Source: Bacilli bacterium (lineage in GTDB: Bacteria > Bacillota_I > Bacilli_A > RF39 > UBA660). Taken from it: 64,000 nucleotides of DNA. Both the position numbers and the translations under genes were made by a program. The notes under the pieces are model-generated. The model was not told the DNA's origin and ran no database searches. It was given only the letters and a program-made list of their open reading frames with translations. Every line of letters begins with the position of its first letter. Positions within the stretch are counted from its first letter, which is position 1. Location: the NCBI GenBank assembly GCA_017541325.1, contig JAFXZI010000001.1:5624-69623 (forward strand). Direction: 5' to 3'. Positions 4,816 to 46,171 of this stretch are shown one piece after another.

Positions 4816-7800
4816 TTATGTATTAATTTCAACGTTATCCCACTCTTCATCAGTAAGTAACCAGTTAACTGCACGGTGTCTTTCAATTACTACTTCAGAG
4901 TTAATAGATGGTTCTAGGCCTTTTGCTTCACAATCTACACAATACCAATCATATCTATAGATTAAATCTGCTAAATCTAGTACATCTTGAACGTCTCTAA
5001 ATAAGCATTTTTCTGTAAATTCTTTATAACTTCCACAAGATGATACGATTGAAGTTATATCATCTGGATCTACTAATACATCTGGAAAAGGTATTTCTTC
5101 AATTAAACCTAAGCACCACATTAGTATTAAATTTCCTTCAAATTGCCATGATATTTGCATAGCAAGATCCTTATCCATCTTATTGAATAATTCTCTTTCT
5201 TCATTTGTCATTGCGCTTCTTACATTAAATGTATCTAAAAGATTATTAAAGAATTTTTTAGAATTTTTTAAATATTTCTTTTTATTATTATTTACTACAT
5301 CACTAGCAAAATTACATACTATTGAAAGAACTATTGCTCGTTTTGCAACTTGATCAAATGTTTTTCCATTTACTTCATAACTGCTCATTATTGGAGGTAA
5401 ATCAATATTATAAGGTATTCCTTGTTCTTGAAGTAAACTTATAGTATTCATCTTACGATCATATGATTCTATAAATTGATTGTTTGATTCGCCTACTTGT
5501 AAGTTTTCTAATGCAATATTTGCTTGTAGTAGTTTTTCATCATTGTTAACAGCTGAAATAGCTACTAAATAACCATATAAATAAGCTGTTTTATAAAATC
5601 TTCCATTACTTAGAATATAAGTATTAACTTTGATACTGTTAGCATCACTTTCATATTTATCTAATAATGAATAATTGTTTGATTCAAAGTTCTTCTTCAT
5701 CCAGTCATCTAATTTATATAGATAATCATCATAAGTATTACATTTAAATAAGAACACTCTAAATGATAGAACTCCATAATCTTGAATATCAAATACATTA
5801 AAGTCTCTTAATACTTTAATACCAGATCCTTTTGGAAATATAAATCTAAATAGACCATGACCACTAATATTATGATAGTATTCTTCATAATCATTTGGAT
5901 TGTATTCAAAGACATCAAATTCACGTTTTTTAACAACTTCATCTCGTTTATCTGAAGGTTCACCATTTATATCAATAGCATATCTTTTTTCTTTTCCATA
6001 AACTACTATATGTTCGGTTACTATTTCTTTTTTAGGATCTAAATCTCCTTCATCAACTTCTTCTAAATTATAAGCATATTTCTTTCGAGCAGCTTCTAAT
6101 TCCTTAATTTTTTCTGGATTAAGCTCAATACCTTCATTAAAGATATCTTCAAAGTCCATTAAATAAATATTACTTACTTCATTTGGAACTATTTCTTCAT
6201 TTACAACAGGAACTTCTTCACGAAGAATATCTTTTAAATCAATTGCATATTTATTTTTAACTTCTTTTTTTACAGTTACTTCTCTAGCAAACATAGGTGC
6301 TAAATCAATGACATATTTATTTGGCTTTTCAATTTCTTTTTCTTCTATTTGATTTTTCTTGCCTTTTTTATGTTTATCTTTTTTACGTTTTTTCTTTTTT
6401 CCAGAATCTTTATTATCTTTTATAATATCAAGTTCATTATCTAAAACTGGTTCTGTTTTATTTGGTATATCTTCTTTTAAAGTTATATCTTCTTCAAATA
6501 TAGGATTCAAATCCATCTTTGGTTTATCTTCTTGTTTTTGAGTCGTTTCATTTTCAAACACATTGTTCATATTCATTATGTCTTGGTTTGAATCTTTTTT
6601 TAATACGTCTGGATTTAAAGTCATTCCACCTTCAAACACGTTGTTCATGTCCATCATGAATTGATTTGTTTTTTCTTCACTTCTTTTTAATGTTATTCCT
6701 TCTTTAAATACAGGTGTTAAATCCATCATATATTCATTCTTAACTTCATTATTCTCATATGATTTTATTCTTTTAAGTCTTTCTTTTGAATTTGGGAAAA
6801 TATTATATTTTAAGAAATCTTCATGAGACTCTTCTTCTAATACCATAATAATCTCATTAAATATTCCGCATAATATATCAATATTTTCTCCGTCCATTGG
6901 AATAAGTAAATAAGCATCTCTATTTTTCATAGACCAATATGAATTTGTACAAGGCTTATCATATCCAACATCATACTTAGTTAAATCATCCCAATAAATA
7001 GACAAGATTCTATGTATTTTTTTAGCAAAAGCTTCATCTTCTTTTACATAAACGAATTCGTCTTTTAGTCCTGAAAAATATATTTCATTATCTATTACAG
7101 ATAACATAACGATATCACTATCTACTGTATATACATATTTAAAATAATACTCAGGAACAACTATATTTTTATACTTACAATCTGTTTCAATACTAATTTG
7201 AGCAGTTGTTTTTTCTTTAGCAACGATTCTTTTAACAGAAATTGGTTCCTCTGGATCAATATCTTCGATAGACACAAAGATTGGGGGATTGATTGGGGTA
7301 ATTACTTTCATGTTAGAAAGAATCTTTGCTAAAACCTTAAAATTAGGATCTTGATTTAGTTTTTTATTATCAAATATTTTAGAATTTTGACTAAGATTAA
7401 TGGTAAAATCAATAACCATTCCATTAATTAGAGCGAAGGCATTTAATATTTTTTTATTTCCTCCATCTATAACTAAATATTTAATTGTAACCTTTTCGTA
7501 TTCTTCTTCTTTTTGATAAAGAATATTATGTCCTTTAAATTCTGATTTAGAGAATATTTTATTATACTTTCTTTTATCCGCAAAGCCACTAAACATAGCA
7601 GTTAAAGATGTAAATTCATCTATTACAAATACGAATAATGTATTATTAGCGATTCCTAATGACTCATATGATGATTTTTTTACTTCTACCCAAGTATCAG
7701 GAATTTCTATAGAAAAGCCGATATTTCTTTCTACAAAATTAATTCTTCCTGTAGTTTGCTTTTGTTGAGTAGCTTGGTTGTTTTTCTTCTTCTTTTTCTT

Positions 7801-7821
7801 CTTAGAATTATAGTTCATCAT
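4816..7821 (-). CDS. Giant cytoplasmic hypothetical protein (about 1000 aa) with K/E-rich low-complexity and a tandem Y-x-[MI]-D-[LM]-x-x-[IV]-F-x-E-[GD] short-motif repeat array; paralogous in organisation to the upstream gene
   Basis: Repeats LTPVFKEG, MDMNNVFEGG, MNMNNVFENE, MDLNPIFEED, IDLAPMFARE, IDLKDILREE, MDFEDIFNEG. Start moved to the ATG at 7821, which has the RBS AAAGGTGG. Overlaps the upstream gene by about 14 nt. Confidence 0.6.
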   Translation of the reverse strand: MMNYNSKKKKKKKNNQATQQKQTTGRINFVERNIGFSIEIPDTWVEVKKSSYESLGIANNTLFVFVIDEFTSLTAMFSGFADKRKYNKIFSKSEFKGHNILYQKEEEYEKVTIKYLVIDGGNKKILNAFALINGMVIDFTINLSQNSKIFDNKKLNQDPNFKVLAKILSNMKVITPINPPIFVSIEDIDPEEPISVKRIVAKEKTTAQISIETDCKYKNIVVPEYYFKYVYTVDSDIVMLSVIDNEIYFSGLKDEFVYVKEDEAFAKKIHRILSIYWDDLTKYDVGYDKPCTNSYWSMKNRDAYLLIPMDGENIDILCGIFNEIIMVLEEESHEDFLKYNIFPNSKERLKRIKSYENNEVKNEYMMDLTPVFKEGITLKRSEEKTNQFMMDMNNVFEGGMTLNPDVLKKDSNQDIMNMNNVFENETTQKQEDKPKMDLNPIFEEDITLKEDIPNKTEPVLDNELDIIKDNKDSGKKKKRKKDKHKKGKKNQIEEKEIEKPNKYVIDLAPMFAREVTVKKEVKNKYAIDLKDILREEVPVVNEEIVPNEVSNIYLMDFEDIFNEGIELNPEKIKELEAARKKYAYNLEEVDEGDLDPKKEIVTEHIVVYGKEKRYAIDINGEPSDKRDEVVKKREFDVFEYNPNDYEEYYHNISGHGLFRFIFPKGSGIKVLRDFNVFDIQDYGVLSFRVFLFKCNTYDDYLYKLDDWMKKNFESNNYSLLDKYESDANSIKVNTYILSNGRFYKTAYLYGYLVAISAVNNDEKLLQANIALENLQVGESNNQFIESYDRKMNTISLLQEQGIPYNIDLPPIMSSYEVNGKTFDQVAKRAIVLSIVCNFASDVVNNNKKKYLKNSKKFFNNLLDTFNVRSAMTNEERELFNKMDKDLAMQISWQFEGNLILMWCLGLIEEIPFPDVLVDPDDITSIVSSCGSYKEFTEKCLFRDVQDVLDLADLIYRYDWYCVDCEAKGLEPSINSEVVIERHRAVNWLLTDEEWDNVEINT

Positions 7822-10687
7822 ATTCACCACCTTTTCTAACTTCTTCAATATCGAAGTCATCTGAGTAAAGTGGATATTTCAAATTACCAGTTCGATATTC
7901 TTCTTTCATTAATGAATCATATTCTTTGAATGAATTATAATCCTTAATTCCTTTTCTACATAATTTAGATATTAATAATGCTAAATCTTCATCTTCTGAA
8001 GTAATTATTAAAGTATTCTCTATCTTATATTTATCTTCTTCACCAATATTTGGATGATGCTTATATAAAGCTGAAAGATATTCTAAACATTTATTTAAAT
8101 TATCTTTTCCTACTTCATCTAAACTTGTAAATACTCCGTTTTGTTTAAATAATCCTTTTAAATAATTACCAAAGTCATTTTCTCTAACACTATTATTTAT
8201 TTCTTCTAAATAATCCTCTAATAGTTGTTCACCATCAAAGTAATTAAATGAGGCATATATATATCTTGGATATGTAATTGCATCAGTACTAATAATTGTA
8301 TTTACATATTTTAATTTTTCTAAGAAATCTTTCTTATGATCATATGAAGGTAAAGAATCTTTATCTTCATGAGCTTGATTATTATTATATTCAGTTACAA
8401 ATTTAGCATAATTATCACCATTTTTTATAACTTCATATAATTCTTCTAATTTATTTATTTCATTATTCTTAACAATAAAGTTTAAGAATAACATAATTGA
8501 TTTTTGTGTTTCTATTTTTTCTACGTTTGCTAAAGCATCATAATTAGTTTTAGCTTTTAATAAATTTAGAATTTTACTGTATTCAATACGTCTTAATTCC
8601 TTTTCATATACAGCTTTTTCCATTCTAAATGTCCAAGACTCTCTAGCATCTTTTTTATCAAGTAAATATATTAATTCTGTGCTGGAATTCATCTTAACAA
8701 TATCGCCTTTTTTAATCTTATCTCCGTTTTCATTACTAATATTTGTTGCTTTATCAATTAGTAATTCAACTTTATCATCTGAAAGGCTAAGCACTTTAAA
8801 TTTAATTCTATCAAAATCTAGAGATATTCCAGGAAGTAATGTATGTTTTTCCACTTCAAGTTCTGGAATTTGAACTACCCCAAATGAATTATCATTTTGA
8901 TAATATGGAATATGTTCAACTACTAATTTCATACTGTCATTGTAATTAATACGATAATTATTAATACTATCAGTAAGAGAATTATCTATTAATCTTTCTA
9001 AGTCAATTTCAGCAAGTTCTTCTTTTTCAATTTTCTTAAGTGATTTCTTAACACTTTCTCGAATATTATCTGTTATATCTTTGCTAACTACAAACTCTTG
9101 TTTATCTTCTTTTGGTTTTTCTTCTTCTTTGGCTTCAATTTTTTCTTTTACTAATTCATATCTTGATGATTCATCTTTTAATAAATCTGTATTAGCTAAA
9201 GTATAATTTCCATGTTTAATTTCAGAAGAATTAATTGTTTTAGGAGTTAATTCTCTCTTTGCTAATTCTTTATTTACAAAATCTGTCTTGTAATTAGAGA
9301 ATATACTTTCTATATCCATCTTGTATGGATTTTCTTCTTTAGTCTTTTCAATTTTTTCTTCTTTCTTTTCTTCTCTTTTTTCCTCTTTTTTATCCTCTTT
9401 TTTATTTGGTTTTGTAACTAATTCCATCTTGTAATTAGAGAATATTTCTTCCATATTAATTTTGTATGGGTTTTCTTTTAGAGTTGTATCTACCTTTTTC
9501 TCTTGTTTTTCTTGTTTCTTTGCAGGTTTTTTAATTATTTCTGTTTTATAGTTAGAGAATAAACTTGCAATATCCATTTCATATGGATTTTCTCTTTTTT
9601 TGCGTGCAGCTTCAAGTTGTGCTTCTTTATATATTTTATCTATATCTATTCTATATTTATTCTTTTTAGCATTTTGTATTTCAGTTTTATAATTACTAAA
9701 TAATTCATCAACATTTATAGCATATGGATTTTTCTTTGGTGCTTCACTTTCAACTTGAGTATTTAGTTTATCAAATTGATCATTTATATTTTTAATAGTT
9801 TCATTATATTTTTCATCTACTTCATCTTGATGTTCTTCTTTTTCTTCTATTTTTTTCTTTTTCTCTTTCTTTTCTTTTGGTTCAGGTTCTTCTTCACCAA
9901 TTATTTCTAGTTCTTCTTGTTCTTCTTCAACTTTTTTCTCTTCAGTCTCTTCTGTAATAATTGTGAATAAACTTTCTTCATCATCTTGTTCTTTTTCGTT
10001 AGTATCGATTACTTCAACTACTTCTTCAGTGGTTTCAACTTCTTGCTCTTCTTCTTTCTCGTCTAGGCTTAATAATTCATCTAATTTATCATAGAATTTA
10101 TATATTGAACCATCTACATATTTTGCATATCTTCTTTCATTTAAATCATAACCAAAATAAGTATTATCACAGTTAAAAATTGGAATAAATTTATCTTTAA
10201 TGAATTCTGAATCAAGTATTTCTTCATGAGCAAGCATTCTTATATCAGATTCATTAAACTTAAATCCGTTTGTAGTATAAGATACAAGTCTTTTAACTTC
10301 TTCAGGGATTGTTGCATTATAAATATCAACTACATTATCTATGTAGAAATCATTTTGTTTTACGCGATCAATGTACTCTAAAAAATCTTTAATAGTAATA
10401 TTAGTTACCATTTCAACTAATAAGTTTATTTTTTCCTTATCATATTCACAAACATTTAAACCATCATTATCATATTCAGCATAATAATCATCATTTTTTT
10501 CTTCATTTACAACATTTTTAACAAGCATTTTTAAACTAGTTAACTTAAATTCAGGCAATATTAAATCAGCTACACATTCATCATCAATAAATGTGAAGCA
10601 TCTTTTATCTTTATTTAAGAAGACTTCTTTTAAATTGTTGTCTTGTATATGAACTTTTAAAATAAAATTTCCAGAGTTATTCATCAT
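7808..10687 (-). CDS. Giant cytoplasmic hypothetical protein (959 aa) with E/K-rich linker and five copies of an ENPY-x-[MI]-[DN]-[IV]-x-x-[LI]-F-S-N-Y-K-T-[ED] repeat
   Basis: Repeats NPYAINVDELFSNYKTE, NPYEMDIASLFSNYKTE, NPYKINMEEIFSNYKME, NPYKMDIESIFSNYKTD and YRIDIDKIYKEAQ. No TM or signal peptide. RBS GGGGAGGA. Confidence 0.6.
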   Translation of the reverse strand: MMNNSGNFILKVHIQDNNLKEVFLNKDKRCFTFIDDECVADLILPEFKLTSLKMLVKNVVNEEKNDDYYAEYDNDGLNVCEYDKEKINLLVEMVTNITIKDFLEYIDRVKQNDFYIDNVVDIYNATIPEEVKRLVSYTTNGFKFNESDIRMLAHEEILDSEFIKDKFIPIFNCDNTYFGYDLNERRYAKYVDGSIYKFYDKLDELLSLDEKEEEQEVETTEEVVEVIDTNEKEQDDEESLFTIITEETEEKKVEEEQEELEIIGEEEPEPKEKKEKKKKIEEKEEHQDEVDEKYNETIKNINDQFDKLNTQVESEAPKKNPYAINVDELFSNYKTEIQNAKKNKYRIDIDKIYKEAQLEAARKKRENPYEMDIASLFSNYKTEIIKKPAKKQEKQEKKVDTTLKENPYKINMEEIFSNYKMELVTKPNKKEDKKEEKREEKKEEKIEKTKEENPYKMDIESIFSNYKTDFVNKELAKRELTPKTINSSEIKHGNYTLANTDLLKDESSRYELVKEKIEAKEEEKPKEDKQEFVVSKDITDNIRESVKKSLKKIEKEELAEIDLERLIDNSLTDSINNYRINYNDSMKLVVEHIPYYQNDNSFGVVQIPELEVEKHTLLPGISLDFDRIKFKVLSLSDDKVELLIDKATNISNENGDKIKKGDIVKMNSSTELIYLLDKKDARESWTFRMEKAVYEKELRRIEYSKILNLLKAKTNYDALANVEKIETQKSIMLFLNFIVKNNEINKLEELYEVIKNGDNYAKFVTEYNNNQAHEDKDSLPSYDHKKDFLEKLKYVNTIISTDAITYPRYIYASFNYFDGEQLLEDYLEEINNSVRENDFGNYLKGLFKQNGVFTSLDEVGKDNLNKCLEYLSALYKHHPNIGEEDKYKIENTLIITSEDEDLALLISKLCRKGIKDYNSFKEYDSLMKEEYRTGNLKYPLYSDDFDIEEVRKGGEYDEL

Positions 10688-10732
10688 ATGTCCTCCCCTT
10701 TTTATTCTAATACCCCAATCTTAACAATATCA

Positions 10733-10761
10733 TTATACAATATATAAATTTAAATTGCTAT
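10733..10761 (-). promoter_or_regulatory. Candidate extended -10 promoter (TGTATAAT on the minus strand) for the giant-protein pair
   Basis: The reverse complement of 10733-10740 is tgtataat, about 45 nt upstream of the start at 10687. Confidence 0.3.
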
Positions 10762-10767
10762 AAAAAT

Positions 10768-10798
10768 TAAAAAGATATTTTAAAAAAATATCTTTTTA
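10768..10798 (-). terminator. A/T-only hairpin (aaagatatttt/aaaatatcttt) after the surface-protein gene; weak terminator
   Basis: Palindrome read directly; lacks a GC-rich stem. Confidence 0.3.
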
Positions 10799-13700
10799 TT
10801 TGTATCCTTTTTTGGCCAATATTATGTATTTTTCCATAGTCTTCTTCATATCTGATGGATAATATGATCTTTTGCTTATAGCAGATGGTGTATAGGCTGG
10901 ATCTAAGTACAAGAAATAGTACCAAGCAAACATGTCTGCGACAAATTCAAAACGGTTTGTATAAGAGTAATCTCTAAGTGGTCTATTATTAGCACTTTTA
11001 TTAGAATATTTATTATATAAATTAACAATATCTGGCATAGAACTTAGGTATTGACCATATTGTAACTTATAATAACTATCCCAAGCATGAGTTAATTCAT
11101 GAACTATTGTTTTTAAATAATATCTATCAAAAGTAGAAGGACATATTACATCAACATTTCTATATCCAATTACTCTTCCATAAGTCATTCCAGCTGATCC
11201 ACTTCCCCATGTATTTTCGAAAGATGATTTTCCAGTAAACGTTACTTTTCCAGCTCCAAAAATATATGGTGCTTTATTATATAATCTACTTGTAAAATTA
11301 TAATAATTAGTATAAATACTAGCAGGACATCCACTTTCTGTTTCAAATGGTACATGTCCAAAAGTTTGTGTTTTTACTATTGAATAAGTATTTTTTCTAT
11401 AATAATTTTTTACTATTGCATAAAGAGTAATATCAGAATTAATAGACATATAACTTCCAGGTGTATATCCAGTTAAAGAATCTTCGTTTGTTGTTGTAGA
11501 AAATAATTGAACTTCATTCCCTTTGCTTACAATATATGGAACTTTTATCTTACAAGAGTTGGCTTTATTATAGTATGAGCATCTTTCTTGGCATCCAGAA
11601 GCCGTTTTTGTACTGCATCCAAATAATCCGTCAGCTCTATTCTTTTGAAAATATGCAACAGCACTTTTTCCTGTTACTGCATAATAAGTAGCACTGGAAG
11701 AAACTAATTCAGAAGAGTTTGTTTTTAATTCTGCTTTTTGCCCGTTTTGTGATCTATTAAATCCTATAACATTCCATCCTGCTCTTGTAATACTTGGTGT
11801 ATTTATATAACAACCTCGATCAGTATTATAGTAAATACATGATTGATTAGTAAAACTTATAGTAGAAGCACCATTCTTATCAAAATAAACATTAACAGGA
11901 ACTGATGTAATAGCAAAATATTTAGCATCTTTTTTTACTGTTAAAGTCTCATTTTGAGCATGAATTGCACTATGAGAAGTACTATCAGTATTCCATCCTA
12001 TAATATTTGCATTTTTTCTACTAATGTATGGTGTTTTAATAGTACATTCTTTATCTTTGTTATAAAAAACACATGTTAATCTTGAATTAGTAATCGCATC
12101 TGCACCATTCTTATCAAAATCTAAATTAACTACTGTTTTAGTAATTGCATACAACTTTAAATTATCTTTTATTAAAGATTTAGTATTAATTTGATATTCT
12201 GCTTGAACATTATTAGGATTTGTACTCCACCCAAGGATTTCTGCACCTTCTTTTTGAATAATAGGAAGTGATACATGACATCCTTCATTATTGTTAATAA
12301 CTTTGCACTTCATCTCTTCACTTGAAATAGAATCAGCACCATTTTTATCAAATTTCATTTTTAAACTAGTATAAGCAAGTGCATAAAGAGTTATATCTTC
12401 ATCAGTATAAAAATTATTAGTTGAAGAAGACAAAGCTGTTTCATTATCTTTATTTAAGTTCCATCCTATAATTTTACCTTTATCAAAAGTAAATTCAGGA
12501 ACTTCTACATAACATTTTTCATCACCATATATGTAGCAGTTTTTAACATGTTTATTTGGAAGAATTCCATTATAATCAAAAGTTACAGTAATGGCTTTTT
12601 TAGTAATTGCATATAAATTTATATTCTTTTTTAAAGAAACTCTTTGATTAATCTTATATTCAGGTTCTTTACTATTTTTATTTTCACTCCATCCTAATAT
12701 TTCATATCCTTCTCTAGTTATGTTTGGAAGAGTTACTATACATTCATTATTAATAGAAGTACATACAGCATAATTGTTATCAATAATTGATCCATTAGCA
12801 TAATAATTCGCTACAAATTTCTTTTTATCAACAAAATCACTTTGTCGTACTGTTATTCCAAGTTCAGTACTAGTATTTCCTGCACTGTCTTTAATATATA
12901 CTCTTATTTGACGTGGTTCTTTTATTTTTATAGTGTTTTCTTTTGTAAATTCACCACCATCAAAACTATATAATAAATCTTTATCATTATCTTTTCCAAA
13001 TGCTGTAACAGTAACAGAATCAGAACTAGATTTTGTAATTTCTACACTTCCAGTAGGTATTTGATTATCTATATTATTGATATCAATTTCCCTAGTTGGA
13101 GTCATATTTCCATATTCATCACGGACAACTAAATATATTTTTTTATTCTCATTTATAACAAAATTATTAGATGTTTGATAAGTTAAACCATTATCAATTG
13201 AATAAGTGAGTTGTCCTGATTTACTTGTAGCATTTACTTTCATATTAACACTTGTATTACTTTTTTTATTAAGTCCAGTAATACTATCAATGCTTATTAA
13301 TCCTTCGCCTTTATCATCTTTTGTTTTTATATTTATATTAAATAAAGTTCCATCTGCTGAATATATTTGATGAATAAAATATGCTTTGTTAGATAGTTTT
13401 ATTTTTTTATTACAACCAACTACTCCTGAACTATTTAATCCAAGTTCACATTTTATTTCTATTTCATTTTTATCAGTTAATACATAATAATCATGAATGT
13501 CTCCATTAAATGTAGGACTTAATGAGCCATCATCAATGTAAATGTTTTTAATACTATTATCATCACTTGGTGTTATTATTTCTTTCTTTTCATTTTTTCT
13601 AGGCATTTTAATTATTAAGAATACAATTAAGATTACAATTGCAATTAATAAATAAATTATTAAATTTCTAATTATTCTTTTTCTTTTATTTTTCTTCTTT

Positions 13701-13933
13701 AAATCATCAAAAGATTGATAATTATCGATTGTTATATTAATATTATCGCTTTCAACGACGTTACTGTGATATTTATGATAATGCTTTATATTAGAATTAT
13801 TTATTTCATTTGAATTATTAAAATTATTGATTTCATTATCTCCATTACTAAAACTAGGACTATATGTATCATGATATGTTCCTATATTTGAATTAGAATT
13901 GGAATTATTGTTATCAGGGTTCTCATTCCACAT
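10796..13933 (-). CDS. Membrane-anchored surface protein: N/S-rich cytoplasmic N-terminus, one TM, Ig-like domains, about six Listeria-Bacteroides (Flg_new) repeats and a C-terminal gluzincin-like metallopeptidase domain (HELTH...EFxAD)
   Basis: TM RIIRNLIIYLLIAIVILIVFLII. Repeated ...GY.ILGW... about 70-aa units ending in ITLYA/LYAIT. C-terminal VHELTHAWD plus NRFEFVADMF, thermolysin-like HExxH plus third Glu ligand. RBS AGGAGG. Confidence 0.6.
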   Translation of the reverse strand: MWNENPDNNNSNSNSNIGTYHDTYSPSFSNGDNEINNFNNSNEINNSNIKHYHKYHSNVVESDNINITIDNYQSFDDLKKKNKRKRIIRNLIIYLLIAIVILIVFLIIKMPRKNEKKEIITPSDDNSIKNIYIDDGSLSPTFNGDIHDYYVLTDKNEIEIKCELGLNSSGVVGCNKKIKLSNKAYFIHQIYSADGTLFNINIKTKDDKGEGLISIDSITGLNKKSNTSVNMKVNATSKSGQLTYSIDNGLTYQTSNNFVINENKKIYLVVRDEYGNMTPTREIDINNIDNQIPTGSVEITKSSSDSVTVTAFGKDNDKDLLYSFDGGEFTKENTIKIKEPRQIRVYIKDSAGNTSTELGITVRQSDFVDKKKFVANYYANGSIIDNNYAVCTSINNECIVTLPNITREGYEILGWSENKNSKEPEYKINQRVSLKKNINLYAITKKAITVTFDYNGILPNKHVKNCYIYGDEKCYVEVPEFTFDKGKIIGWNLNKDNETALSSSTNNFYTDEDITLYALAYTSLKMKFDKNGADSISSEEMKCKVINNNEGCHVSLPIIQKEGAEILGWSTNPNNVQAEYQINTKSLIKDNLKLYAITKTVVNLDFDKNGADAITNSRLTCVFYNKDKECTIKTPYISRKNANIIGWNTDSTSHSAIHAQNETLTVKKDAKYFAITSVPVNVYFDKNGASTISFTNQSCIYYNTDRGCYINTPSITRAGWNVIGFNRSQNGQKAELKTNSSELVSSSATYYAVTGKSAVAYFQKNRADGLFGCSTKTASGCQERCSYYNKANSCKIKVPYIVSKGNEVQLFSTTTNEDSLTGYTPGSYMSINSDITLYAIVKNYYRKNTYSIVKTQTFGHVPFETESGCPASIYTNYYNFTSRLYNKAPYIFGAGKVTFTGKSSFENTWGSGSAGMTYGRVIGYRNVDVICPSTFDRYYLKTIVHELTHAWDSYYKLQYGQYLSSMPDIVNLYNKYSNKSANNRPLRDYSYTNRFEFVADMFAWYYFLYLDPAYTPSAISKRSYYPSDMKKTMEKYIILAKKGYK

Positions 13934-17971: not shown

Positions 17972-18319
17972 AATACTTTATAAGCCTCGTTCTGTACCCA
18001 CTAATGGGCGACAAACATTTATCTACCTTTCGGTCTTTAACTCCATTCTAATTCTTTTGTTAAAGCTCTCCTACCAATTTTGGATTTCTCACTTGTGGGG
18101 TTTACCGCGTTTCATTTCTTTATTTCTAAAGAAGTCGTTTCTGTGGCACTTTTATAGCTAATCATATCATATGTTAAAAACACTTAGATACTTTCGCAGC
18201 CGTTAGTTTTCACTACCTAGAGTTAGTCTATTCCCCTAGCACAAACACTACAATCATCACAGATTGTGTGAGCAAGGACTTTCCTCACCATATTACTATA
18301 GCGCGTTTGTCAAAGTATT
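17972..18319 (-). ncRNA. rnpB: RNase P RNA (rnpB), Bacillus type B
   Basis: Minus strand reads ...GGUGAGGAAAGUCCUUGCUCACAC...AAAGUGCCACAGAAACG...GAAACGCGGUAAACCCCACAAGUGAGAAAUCCAAAAUUGGUAGGAGAGCUUUAAC...ACAGAACGAGGCUUAU. These match the conserved P4, P10-12 and P15-18 blocks of B. subtilis RNase P RNA. Higher GC than the surroundings, no ORF, and gpsB is adjacent as in Bacillus. Confidence 0.85.
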
Positions 18320-41775: not shown

Positions 41776-41852
41776 TGGGGCGGAATAAGGGGATCGAACC
41801 CTTGCATACCGGAGCCACAATCCGGCGTGTTAACCACTTCACCAATACCGCC
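41776..41852 (-). tRNA. tRNA-His (anticodon GTG), CCA encoded, with G-1
   Basis: Minus strand reads G-GCGGTAT...anticodon stem CCGGA/TCCGG with loop TTGTGGC (GTG anticodon), T-arm AAGGGTTCGATCCCTT, acceptor ATTCCGC-C-CCA. Confidence 0.85.
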
Positions 41853-45961: not shown

Positions 45962-46106
45962 CGAAAAAAACTAGTGAAGATATATTTTTTGTTATAATCT
46001 CTATTTTATTTTTTGTTATATATCTAACGACTCACCATGCCGCAGTAGTACCCGCCGAATCTTTCGATTACCTACCGACCTCGTCAACATTATGTCCTGG
46101 CGCTTA
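45962..46106 (-). ncRNA. glmS ribozyme (GlcN6P-dependent self-cleaving riboswitch) in the glmS 5' leader
   Basis: Minus strand reads A/GCGCCAGGACAUAAUGUUGACGAGGUCGGUAGGUAAUCGAAAGAUUCGGCGGGUACUACUGCGGCAUGG, matching the conserved AGCGCCAG...GACGAGG...AUCGAA..UUCGGCGG core. GC-rich island in an AT-rich leader. Confidence 0.8.
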
Positions 46107-46171
46107 ATATAATTTACAACCTTTCTCGTTATATCTAATTTAAGTTTATAATAGATAGATTTTCACTACAA

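Follow-up and report, generated by a model that had tools for sequence, protein, structure and literature searches.

The window considered here is a stretch of 64,000 nucleotides (nt) from a Bacilli bacterium (GTDB lineage Bacillota_I; Bacilli_A; RF39; UBA660), positions 5,624 to 69,623 of contig JAFXZI010000001.1, and we are concerned with a pair of adjacent, leftward-transcribed genes within it that are referred to as A and B. Both encode large proteins whose globular ends are joined by a disordered linker bearing an array of short motifs. The two genes are coupled and strictly co-occur, and the repeat families in their linkers have been replaced in parallel. The window has a GC content of 26% and includes recA and rny; its class B RNase P RNA, glmS ribozyme and tRNA-His gene identify it as part of a Bacillota chromosome.

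Organization of the A and B genes

The genes, domains and other features are listed in Table 1. The preliminary description, made from the DNA alone, reported two consecutive genes of about 1000 codons overlapping by about 14 nt, and this arrangement is borne out. The open reading frame (ORF) list places the start of B at its first ATG (7860), giving a product of 1014 amino acids (aa), but the ATG at 7821 is the better supported start because the Shine-Dalgarno sequence AAAGGTGGTG lies 3 nt upstream of it. With this start, the overlap is 14 nt (7808-7821) and the ATG of B sits within the last bases of A. The extreme C-terminus of A (window positions 7811-7894) is near-invariant across orthologues (L-K-Y-P-x-Y-S-x-x-F-x-I-E-E-x-R-x-G-G-E-Y-D-E-[FLY]), and part of this conservation is probably imposed by the ribosome-binding site and start codon of B, which occupy the same bases. 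For A itself the start is that of the ORF list; a metagenomic protein of 958 aa (P0001) is identical to A from the second ATG (10684).

The control region upstream of A was read from the sequence. It contains an AT-rich hairpin, an extended -10-like element (TGTATAAT) and a strong Shine-Dalgarno sequence (AAGGGGAGGA), all three recognised only by resemblance to consensus, and with these features A-B looks like its own bicistronic unit. A promoter-like site was placed at 10733..10704 by a scan of the region upstream of A, and a terminator scan listed none between A and its upstream neighbour, gene X. Neither A nor B has a stretch hydrophobic enough for a transmembrane segment or signal peptide, in agreement with the preliminary description: the Kyte-Doolittle maximum (19-residue) is 1.21 for A and 1.56 for B, compared with 3.33 for a neighbouring membrane protein. 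Lysine plus glutamate make up 27.6% of A and 20.4% of B.

Table 1. Features of the A-B locus and of the rest of the window. Positions are those of the window; residue numbers (aa) are those of the protein concerned; pLDDT, predicted local distance difference test.
Feature	aa	Window position	Strand	Remarks
Gene A		10687..7808	-	959 aa; first gene of bicistronic pair; from ORF list
A N-terminal domain	1-95	10403-10687	-	Conserved; low-confidence model
A SUKH (SMI1/KNR4)-like domain	96-205	10073..10402	-	Alpha+beta; AlphaFold pLDDT 70-87
A disordered E/K-rich linker	206-535	9083..10072	-	pLDDT <50; length and content differ between orthologues
A repeat array		9161..9730	-	In disordered linker; 5 clear and 1 degenerate copies
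A clear copies	320, 343, 367, 406, 453	9680-9730, 9611-9661, 9539-9589, 9422-9472, 9281-9331	-
A degenerate sixth copy	493	9161-9211	-
A beta-sandwich	585-690	8618-8935	-	pLDDT ~75-94
A all-helical domain	694-931	7895-8608	-	pLDDT ~75-94
Gene B		7821..4816	-	1001 aa; preferred start ATG 7821
B PsbP/DcrB/Eag (DUF1795)-like domain	25-175	7297..7749	-	AlphaFold and Foldseek
B alpha/beta domain	205-335	6817-7209	-	Without recognised fold
B disordered linker	351-629	5935-6771	-	pLDDT <50
B repeat array		5941..6738 (approximate)	-	9 copies
B clear copies (start)	362, 386, 412, 432, 501, 551		-
B degenerate copies (start)	523, 580, 611		-
All nine B copies		6688-6738, 6616-6666, 6538-6588, ~6478-6528, 6271-6321, 6205-6255, 6121-6171, 6034-6084, ~5941-5991	-
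B second PsbP-like domain	630-780	5482..5934	-	Missing from most basal B homologue (L015)
B DUF4272 domain	789-997	4831..5457	-	Pfam PF14094
A/B junction		7808..7834	-	A stop codon 7810..7808; read from sequence
Shine-Dalgarno of B		7834..7825	-	Within conserved K-G-G-E codons of A
Control region upstream of A		10691..10796	-
AT-rich hairpin		10796..10771	-	Follows X stop codon
Extended -10-like element		10739..10732	-
Shine-Dalgarno of A		10700..10691	-
Gene X		10796..13933	-	1045 aa; type-II membrane protein; possible third component
X membrane span	88-108	13610-13672	-
X HELTH	945	11087-11101	-	Metalloprotease-like motif
X EFVADMF	996	10928-10948	-	Metalloprotease-like motif
Class B RNase P RNA		17976-18318	-	Housekeeping RNA
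tRNA-His		41776-41851	-	Housekeeping RNA
glmS ribozyme		45969-46115	-	Upstream of 608-aa ORF

Motif arrays in the linkers of A and B

The arrays of a short motif noted at the outset are real and occur far more often than chance would allow, with five clear and one degenerate copies in A and six clear and three degenerate copies in B. The A copies conform to N-[PK]-Y-x-[MI]-[DN]-[IVM]-x-x-[LI]-[FY], followed in four of the five clear copies by S-N-Y-K-[TM]-[ED], and are irregularly spaced at 23-47 aa; those of B conform to N-x-Y-x-[MI]-D-[LMF]-x-x-[IVM]-F. When the linkers were shuffled 20,000 times, the core pattern [YF]x[MIVL][DN][LIMVF]xx[ILVM][FY] was expected 0.001 times in the A linker, where five matches are observed, and 0.003 times in the B linker, where there are four (six against 0.05 with a looser pattern). 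Among ORF segments of at least 150 aa throughout the window, nine of the ten core matches fall in A and B.

At the DNA level the copies are 63-81% identical (70-79% for D3, the repeat family of A; the B array comprises families D4-D6 and D18). The four copies of A with NPY...SNYK differ at a proportion of 0.70 of synonymous sites (pS), which is saturation, and 0.22 of replacement sites (pN), a pN/pS of 0.32, whereas pN/pS in the spacers adjacent to the motif copies is ~1.0. N-P-Y, D and F-S-N-Y-K are retained despite a change of serine codon family (AGT versus TCT). The motif of A is thus under purifying selection, and the combination of saturated synonymous sites with conserved replacement sites indicates that the copies are old and have been held by selection, and are not the product of recent slippage or compositional low complexity. 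The motif is also kept in the orthologous loci L001 and L003, which likewise argues against mere low complexity. Low-complexity tracts aside, no DNA repeat family is common to the A and B copies of the window, and the core that they share is therefore not accounted for by recent conversion.

Amphipathic helices that bind membranes were considered as a role for the motifs and rejected in view of their acidic or neutral character and of the low helical moment of the window type. We also note that a segment at the start of the DUF4272 domain of B (I-P-Y-N-I-D-L-P-P-I-M-S-S-Y-E-V, aa 801-816, window ~5374-5421) is aligned by BLASTP with the A repeat N-P-Y-K-M-D-I-E-S-I-F-S-N-Y-K-T (E 1.0). A derivation of the A repeats from this segment, or mimicry of it, is not relied on here: a position matrix of the A copies left the segment outside the top 25 matches in the window, and the resemblance may be due to chance.

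Distribution and co-occurrence of A and B

Both proteins are rare. In a collection of 5.8 billion proteins, homologues of A form 16 clusters (with no Pfam domain) and those of B 11 clusters (all with PF14094), and an exhaustive profile search with the C-terminal 400 residues of A recovered 24 proteins among 1.84 billion representatives. Where a source is named, it is a genome of an uncultured member of the Erysipelotrichaceae, Bacilli or Bacillota, assembled from rumen, rabbit, goat or chicken material; a scan of metagenome contigs contributed only two partial loci. In all 13 loci with a readable region downstream of A, a gene with a DUF4272 domain follows, overlapping or abutting it. The orthologues in L001 and L003 are 41-48% identical to A and B of the window over their full length and 57-60% identical over the conserved C-terminal domains, and the pair is kept in basal members at ~30% identity, though X and the flanking genes differ.

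Turnover of the repeat families

Four unrelated repeat families, designated types i to iv, are found in the crown clade. Type i (Y-x-[MI]-D-[IL]-x-x-[IL]-F) is that of the window, with 5-6 copies in A and 9 in B, and is also present in L003 (3-4 in A, 6 in B) and L001 (6 in A, 1 relic in B). Type ii (I-[GN]-K-E-A-x-x-I-L-x-K-L) is represented in L002 (~15 in A, 1 in B), L006 (8 and 3) and L007 (0 and 3). Type iii (K-E-N-x-x-F-x-x-F-[LI]-x-x-Y-[DE]) has ~16 copies in A and ~9 in B of L016, with relics elsewhere, and type iv ([DE]-E-F-x-x-V-L-D-E-H-A-I-D-E-E-I-K-H-E-I-D) has 4-5 and 5 copies in A and B of L008. The repeats of either protein belong to one family per genome, and in the seven genomes in which both proteins carry repeats the families match in all seven, with B having a single copy in two of them (L001 and L002). 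When the families are placed on a tree of the conserved domains, one clade is characterised by type i and type ii is ancestral in the other, with types iii and iv having replaced it in sub-lineages, a pattern that requires several independent turnovers. Basal homologues of A are 567-631 aa long and essentially lack the linker, and one basal B is 524 aa and is without the second PsbP-like domain; as these members do not have the long repeat-bearing linker, the arrays are lineage-specific expansions.

In L008 and L006, copies from A and copies from B fall into common DNA repeat families, with identities of 61-88%, showing that sequence has moved between A and B, and in L003 the motif flanks F-[RK]-D-[LV]-D-L-[RK]-[LI]-K are common to the two proteins. 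The main rival to a functional interpretation of the arrays builds on such exchange. It holds that the linkers are neutral spacers in which arrays arise by slippage or duplication and are spread by gene conversion, that the matching of A and B would accordingly reflect recombination and not a common partner, and that only the globular ends are functional. The absence of arrays from basal and some crown members, the highly variable copy number, the repeat families spanning both genes in L008 and L006 and the lack of predicted structure for the arrays of the window in AlphaFold models are all consistent with it. Nonetheless, the A copies of the window have retained their motif in spite of their age and have a far lower pN/pS than their spacers, the core persists in both genes across lineages that are 57-60% identical in the conserved domains, and the A and B copies of the window do not share a repeat family at the DNA level. 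On balance we regard neutral spacers as an unlikely but serious explanation.

An alternative is that the arrays form folded or semi-rigid structural rods (solenoids, helical hairpins and single alpha-helices are examples) that set the distance between the N- and C-terminal domains of each protein; on this view, A and B would use the same building block because their rods pack side by side. Types ii and iii are regular, with periods of 20-34 aa, heptad-like hydrophobic spacing and a high helical moment, and AlphaFold predicts long helices around aa 270-309, 339-365 and 535-581 of A. The helical hydrophobic moment is weak for type i, however (0.17-0.47, compared with a clear amphipathic helix at ~0.5 for type ii), its copies are irregularly spaced, pLDDT falls below 35 across the array, and within a single genome the arrays of A and B differ greatly in length. 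Rods thus fit types ii and iii better than the type i of the window, and as a general explanation we consider them rather improbable.

Two further observations concern the arrays. P0002, an orthologue of A that is 65% identical, contains at aa ~385-530 three type i copies together with four copies of a longer unit, K-T-D-Y-L-L-G-K-D-K-L-F-D-N-Y-P-D-Y-E-L-G-x-x-K-F-E-I-D-K-D-D-I-K-E-P-K, so that arrays turn over even between close relatives. In L005 a masked run (X/N) lies within the A linker at ~9130-9200; the repeat-rich linker is probably hard to assemble, and metagenome assemblies may consequently contain too few arrays or collapsed ones.

Domains of A

AlphaFold models, built on alignments of orthologues, show A and B as proteins with globular ends and a disordered middle; mean pLDDT is ~61, with values of 70-90 in the globular parts and below 35 in the linkers. 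The assignment of aa 96-205 of A as SUKH-like comes from a Foldseek match to 3d5p_A (SMI1/KNR4) with a probability of 1.0, a target-normalised template-modelling (TM) score of 0.50 and a root-mean-square deviation of 3.5 A over 103 columns, but with an E of 0.13 and at 13th rank; the range in the query was assigned by size and secondary structure. Pfam models of the SMI1_KNR4 type gave no match at E up to 1 in A and 14 orthologues.

The most conserved part of A (aa 585-931, 7895..8935) consists of the beta-sandwich and the all-helical domain. The sandwich has weak FHA-like fold matches only (Xrs2, E 2.8e-3; TIFA, E 0.05-0.5; TM at most 0.28). FHA domains bind phosphothreonine through Gly-Arg, Ser-x-x-His and Asn residues, and across the orthologue alignment aa 585-690 show no invariant Arg, Ser-x-x-His or Asn-Gly; the columns that are invariant are K586, L587, E590, H591, P593, Y594, I606, P607, P618, K628, K658, E682, W684 and E689. 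For the helical domain, a Foldseek search of the PDB gave no match.

Domains of B

The one library match in the pair is to DUF4272 at the C-terminus of B, in line with the earlier statement that no characterised family could be recognised. PF14094 is matched over its full length (model positions 1-208 of 208) with an E of 2.8e-52 and 177 bits against a cut-off of 27, and it is matched by 12 of 12 B orthologues and not by A. Standalone DUF4272 proteins encoded on Bacillus and Rhizobium plasmids share 33-35% identity with the domain, and the surroundings of their genes are uninformative; a word-indexed search with the domain gave four matches, Foldseek found none in the PDB, and the literature searched includes no paper that mentions DUF4272, PF14094 or IPR025368. 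We note one locus (L009) in which a standalone gene of 209 aa with this domain lies 20 nt downstream of a reverse transcriptase (110-2292; a full-length PADLOC match to retron type XIII, E 9e-197). This is a single case, and the retron-type neighbour may be a lead to the role of DUF4272.

The PsbP-like fold of B has eight Foldseek matches in the PDB at E up to 1e-3, the best being PsbP (2xb3, E 6.4e-6, TM 0.58) and the others including DcrB (6e8a), SciW (6xrr), EagT6 (6xrf) and Tsi3 (3wa5), with probabilities of 0.96-1.0. A fold search of BFVD added PsbP-like matches only, to phage lipoproteins of the same fold. In sequence-family searches the sole match for the PsbP-like domains was to the Pfam PsbP model, in a single orthologue and with an E of 0.35. 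Searches of A, B and X against NCBIfam, PADLOC and PHROGs gave no matches, nor did PDB sequence searches with single proteins and profiles, and permissive Pfam scans across all orthologues returned DUF4272 plus noise. No enzyme family was found in A or B in Pfam, NCBIfam or PADLOC. B begins with a run of seven lysines (MMNYNSKKKKKKK, aa 7-13, window 7780-7803), and a basic N-terminus is kept in orthologues (consensus MMNxKKKKxK).

Relationship of A to B

A and B had been proposed to be paralogues, and this is contradicted on three counts. In profile-profile comparison the C-terminal domains of A match the B family with a probability of only 0.1, BLASTP aligns the two proteins only in the repeat region (E 0.019), and their predicted folds differ. 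The two are unrelated in their globular parts and have only the repeats in common. The common architecture described earlier, with globular ends, a disordered linker and repeats, does exist, but it reflects an exchangeable linker module placed in two different proteins and not descent from one ancestor.

Genome context and gene X

Gene X, whose product has an Asn-rich cytoplasmic tail and Listeria-Bacteroides repeats, precedes A in 10 loci of the crown clade, which represent two distinct genomic contexts. X of the window and its counterpart in L002, also located upstream of A, are 45% identical over their whole length. The anthrax lethal factor-like family is marked by HExxH and a downstream Glu ligand, and HELTH and EFVADMF are present in X. 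Its match to the Pfam ATLF model (anthrax lethal factor-like, peptidase M34) is weak (E 0.11, 12.6 bits against a cut-off of 27.4), and no match was found in the PDB by sequence. X does not precede A in L013, L015 and L019, which branch more deeply and in which the pair lies beside the same aldehyde dehydrogenase gene as in many crown loci. The conserved core is therefore A-B, and X may be a later-recruited partner or merely a linked neighbour.

This context bears on the possibility that SUKH, Eag/Tsi3-like and DUF4272 domains have been fused in A and B into giant immunity proteins or chaperones, which would serve a polymorphic-toxin or secretion system by neutralising or escorting an effector, possibly X. 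SUKH-type immunity genes typically have a toxin gene immediately upstream, with a variable C-terminal toxin domain. The fold matches to SMI1/KNR4 (SUKH), to the Eag chaperones SciW and EagT6 and to the immunity protein Tsi3 suggest such a role, as does the presence of X, with its C-terminal HExxH domain, just upstream in the crown clade. However, no toxin, LXG, Rhs, secretion or effector genes adjoin the pair in any of 13 loci, the pair is found without X in L013, L015 and L019, and X is conserved from end to end and does not have a polymorphic C-terminus. Moreover, the catalytic-type domain of X lies outside the cell, while an export signal is lacking in both A and B, no immunity-family matches were found in PADLOC or Pfam, and the stable chromosomal context is consistent with vertical inheritance. 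We consider this explanation quite improbable. An origin of the pair in a phage or defence island was rejected, the chromosomal context being stable and among housekeeping genes.

A model for the A-B pair

A plausible scenario, which we favour tentatively, is that A and B together make up a single adaptor or scaffold complex, cytoplasmic and non-enzymatic, in which the motif arrays act as multivalent docking elements. Such a complex would be confined to one small clade of gut Bacilli that are uncultured, and translational coupling would lead to A and B being made in fixed proportion. Each subunit has conserved globular ends of a protein-binding type joined by an expandable, disordered tether, and in the lineage of the window the tethers carry arrays of a linear motif of ~17 aa with the hydrophobic core Y-x-Phi-D-Phi-x-x-Phi-F amid charged sequence. 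We infer that the motifs bind something, what this target is and that a larger assembly results: the copies would act as 'stickers' that recognise one common partner, which could be each other or a groove on the conserved domains of the pair itself, and through such contacts A and B would be joined in a higher-order assembly. The PsbP/Eag-like domains of B would be the first receptor candidates, since relatives of this fold hold hydrophobic helices according to the titles of their PDB entries.

Several lines of evidence point to this scenario. The coupling of the genes, their co-occurrence and a domain content made up entirely of adaptor types suggest a two-subunit, non-enzymatic complex; the proteins found as fold matches (SMI1/KNR4, PsbP, DcrB, SciW, EagT6 and Tsi3) all bind proteins or peptides and none catalyse. 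The description of the pair as scaffold-like is compatible with this domain content. That the copies are old and their motif is under selection speaks for some role of the arrays. Each family has a short hydrophobic core in charged sequence, and the families of A and B match through successive turnovers; the simplest functional reading is that they are docking elements for one common target.

A number of points weigh against docking. The arrays are dispensable, there being none in L004, L019, L013 or L015, nor in A of L007, and the copy numbers of A and B are not matched (15 versus 1 in L002, for example). DNA exchange between adjacent genes could alone explain the matching of families. The weak moment of type i compared with the amphipathic type ii suggests that the four families may not share one binding mode, and types ii and iii could be folded rods and not linear motifs. 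In addition, the SUKH-like and FHA-like assignments come from weak fold matches and from models of modest mean pLDDT.

A particular form of the docking model is that of a two-component scaffold with homotypic sticker arrays, which recognise each other and in which the sticker family has been repeatedly reinvented and copied between the adjacent genes, keeping the partners matched at all times. We regard this version as doubtful; if true, it would represent a natural example of an interaction code that evolves in concert, and the resulting cytoplasmic network could be a condensate or a cytoskeleton-like mesh.

It has also to be asked whether the target of the motifs is a housekeeping hub, for instance the DNA sliding clamp, FtsZ/FtsA or a chaperone, in which case A-B would be a multivalent recruiter in replication or cell division. 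Clamp-binding peptides have the consensus Q-L-[SD]-L-F and the FtsZ C-terminal peptide is D-[IL]-P-x-F-[LM]-[RK]; the D-I-x-S-L-F of the motif loosely recalls both (the latter as D-I-P-x-F-L), and recA and rny are in the window. Yet the Gln that defines clamp binding is present in no motif copy and the D-Phi-x-x-Phi-F spacing is one residue off the FtsZ tail, and on these grounds mimicry of either peptide was rejected. Furthermore, the motif family has been swapped for unrelated sequences in sister lineages even though such hubs are invariant, and the recA/rny neighbourhood is not conserved among loci. Recruitment of a hub is accordingly the least probable of the explanations considered here, and very unlikely.

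Comparison with known systems

The A-B pair resembles known disordered, motif-bearing scaffolds in outline but is a member of none. The two PsbP-like domains of B are like members of the PsbP/DcrB/DUF1795 fold (SciW, EagT6, Tsi3), of which the Eag chaperones hold the hydrophobic helices of their clients; unlike these, they are within a cytoplasmic protein of 1000 aa in a Gram-positive lineage, have no significant sequence match and lack secretion or effector genes nearby. Similarly, aa 96-205 of A share the alpha+beta fold of SUKH proteins, and we take the sequence pattern of this region (IPEEVKRL..YTTNG..., IPIF..DN.Y.GYD) to resemble that family, but the domain is embedded in a much larger protein, is outside a toxin-immunity neighbourhood and has no Pfam match. 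The C-terminal 210 aa of B constitute a full-length, high-scoring member of the DUF4272 family, whereas typical standalone members are single-domain proteins of ~210 aa (391 aa in Bacillus pseudomycoides) in unrelated contexts.

The C-terminal scaffold of RNase E and the C-terminal linker and tail of FtsZ are disordered, length-variable regions with short interaction motifs. A and B are alike in having a compositionally biased disordered region with short motifs between or after folded domains, but there is no homology, and in A-B the same motif arrays are present in two partners and turn over together; we know of no matched arrays with joint motif turnover in the RNase E or FtsZ systems. HMW1, HMW2 and P65 of the Mycoplasma terminal organelle are large acidic cytoskeletal proteins of the cytoplasm. 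They are similar to A and B in being large and cytoplasmic with acidic low-complexity or repeat regions and in belonging to low-GC, Bacillota-related lineages, but differ in that no sequence or domain relationship was detected and the A-B host is walled (penicillin-binding protein and sortase genes are present in the related locus L001); nothing ties A-B to a polar organelle.

A has no characterised homologue, and to our knowledge there is no earlier description of two coupled partner genes whose motif families turn over in parallel. If the arrays are interaction elements, the locus would be a natural experiment in the evolution of multivalent linear-motif codes, with four families, two genes and array-free ancestral forms, and would provide a first functional handle on DUF4272 and on a family found only in uncultured gut Bacilli. 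If they are neutral, it is still a record of neighbouring genes whose linkers have undergone gene conversion, and of how readily disordered linkers expand. Either way, the two genes can be annotated better than as hypothetical, as translationally coupled genes whose products contain SUKH-like, PsbP-like and DUF4272 domains.

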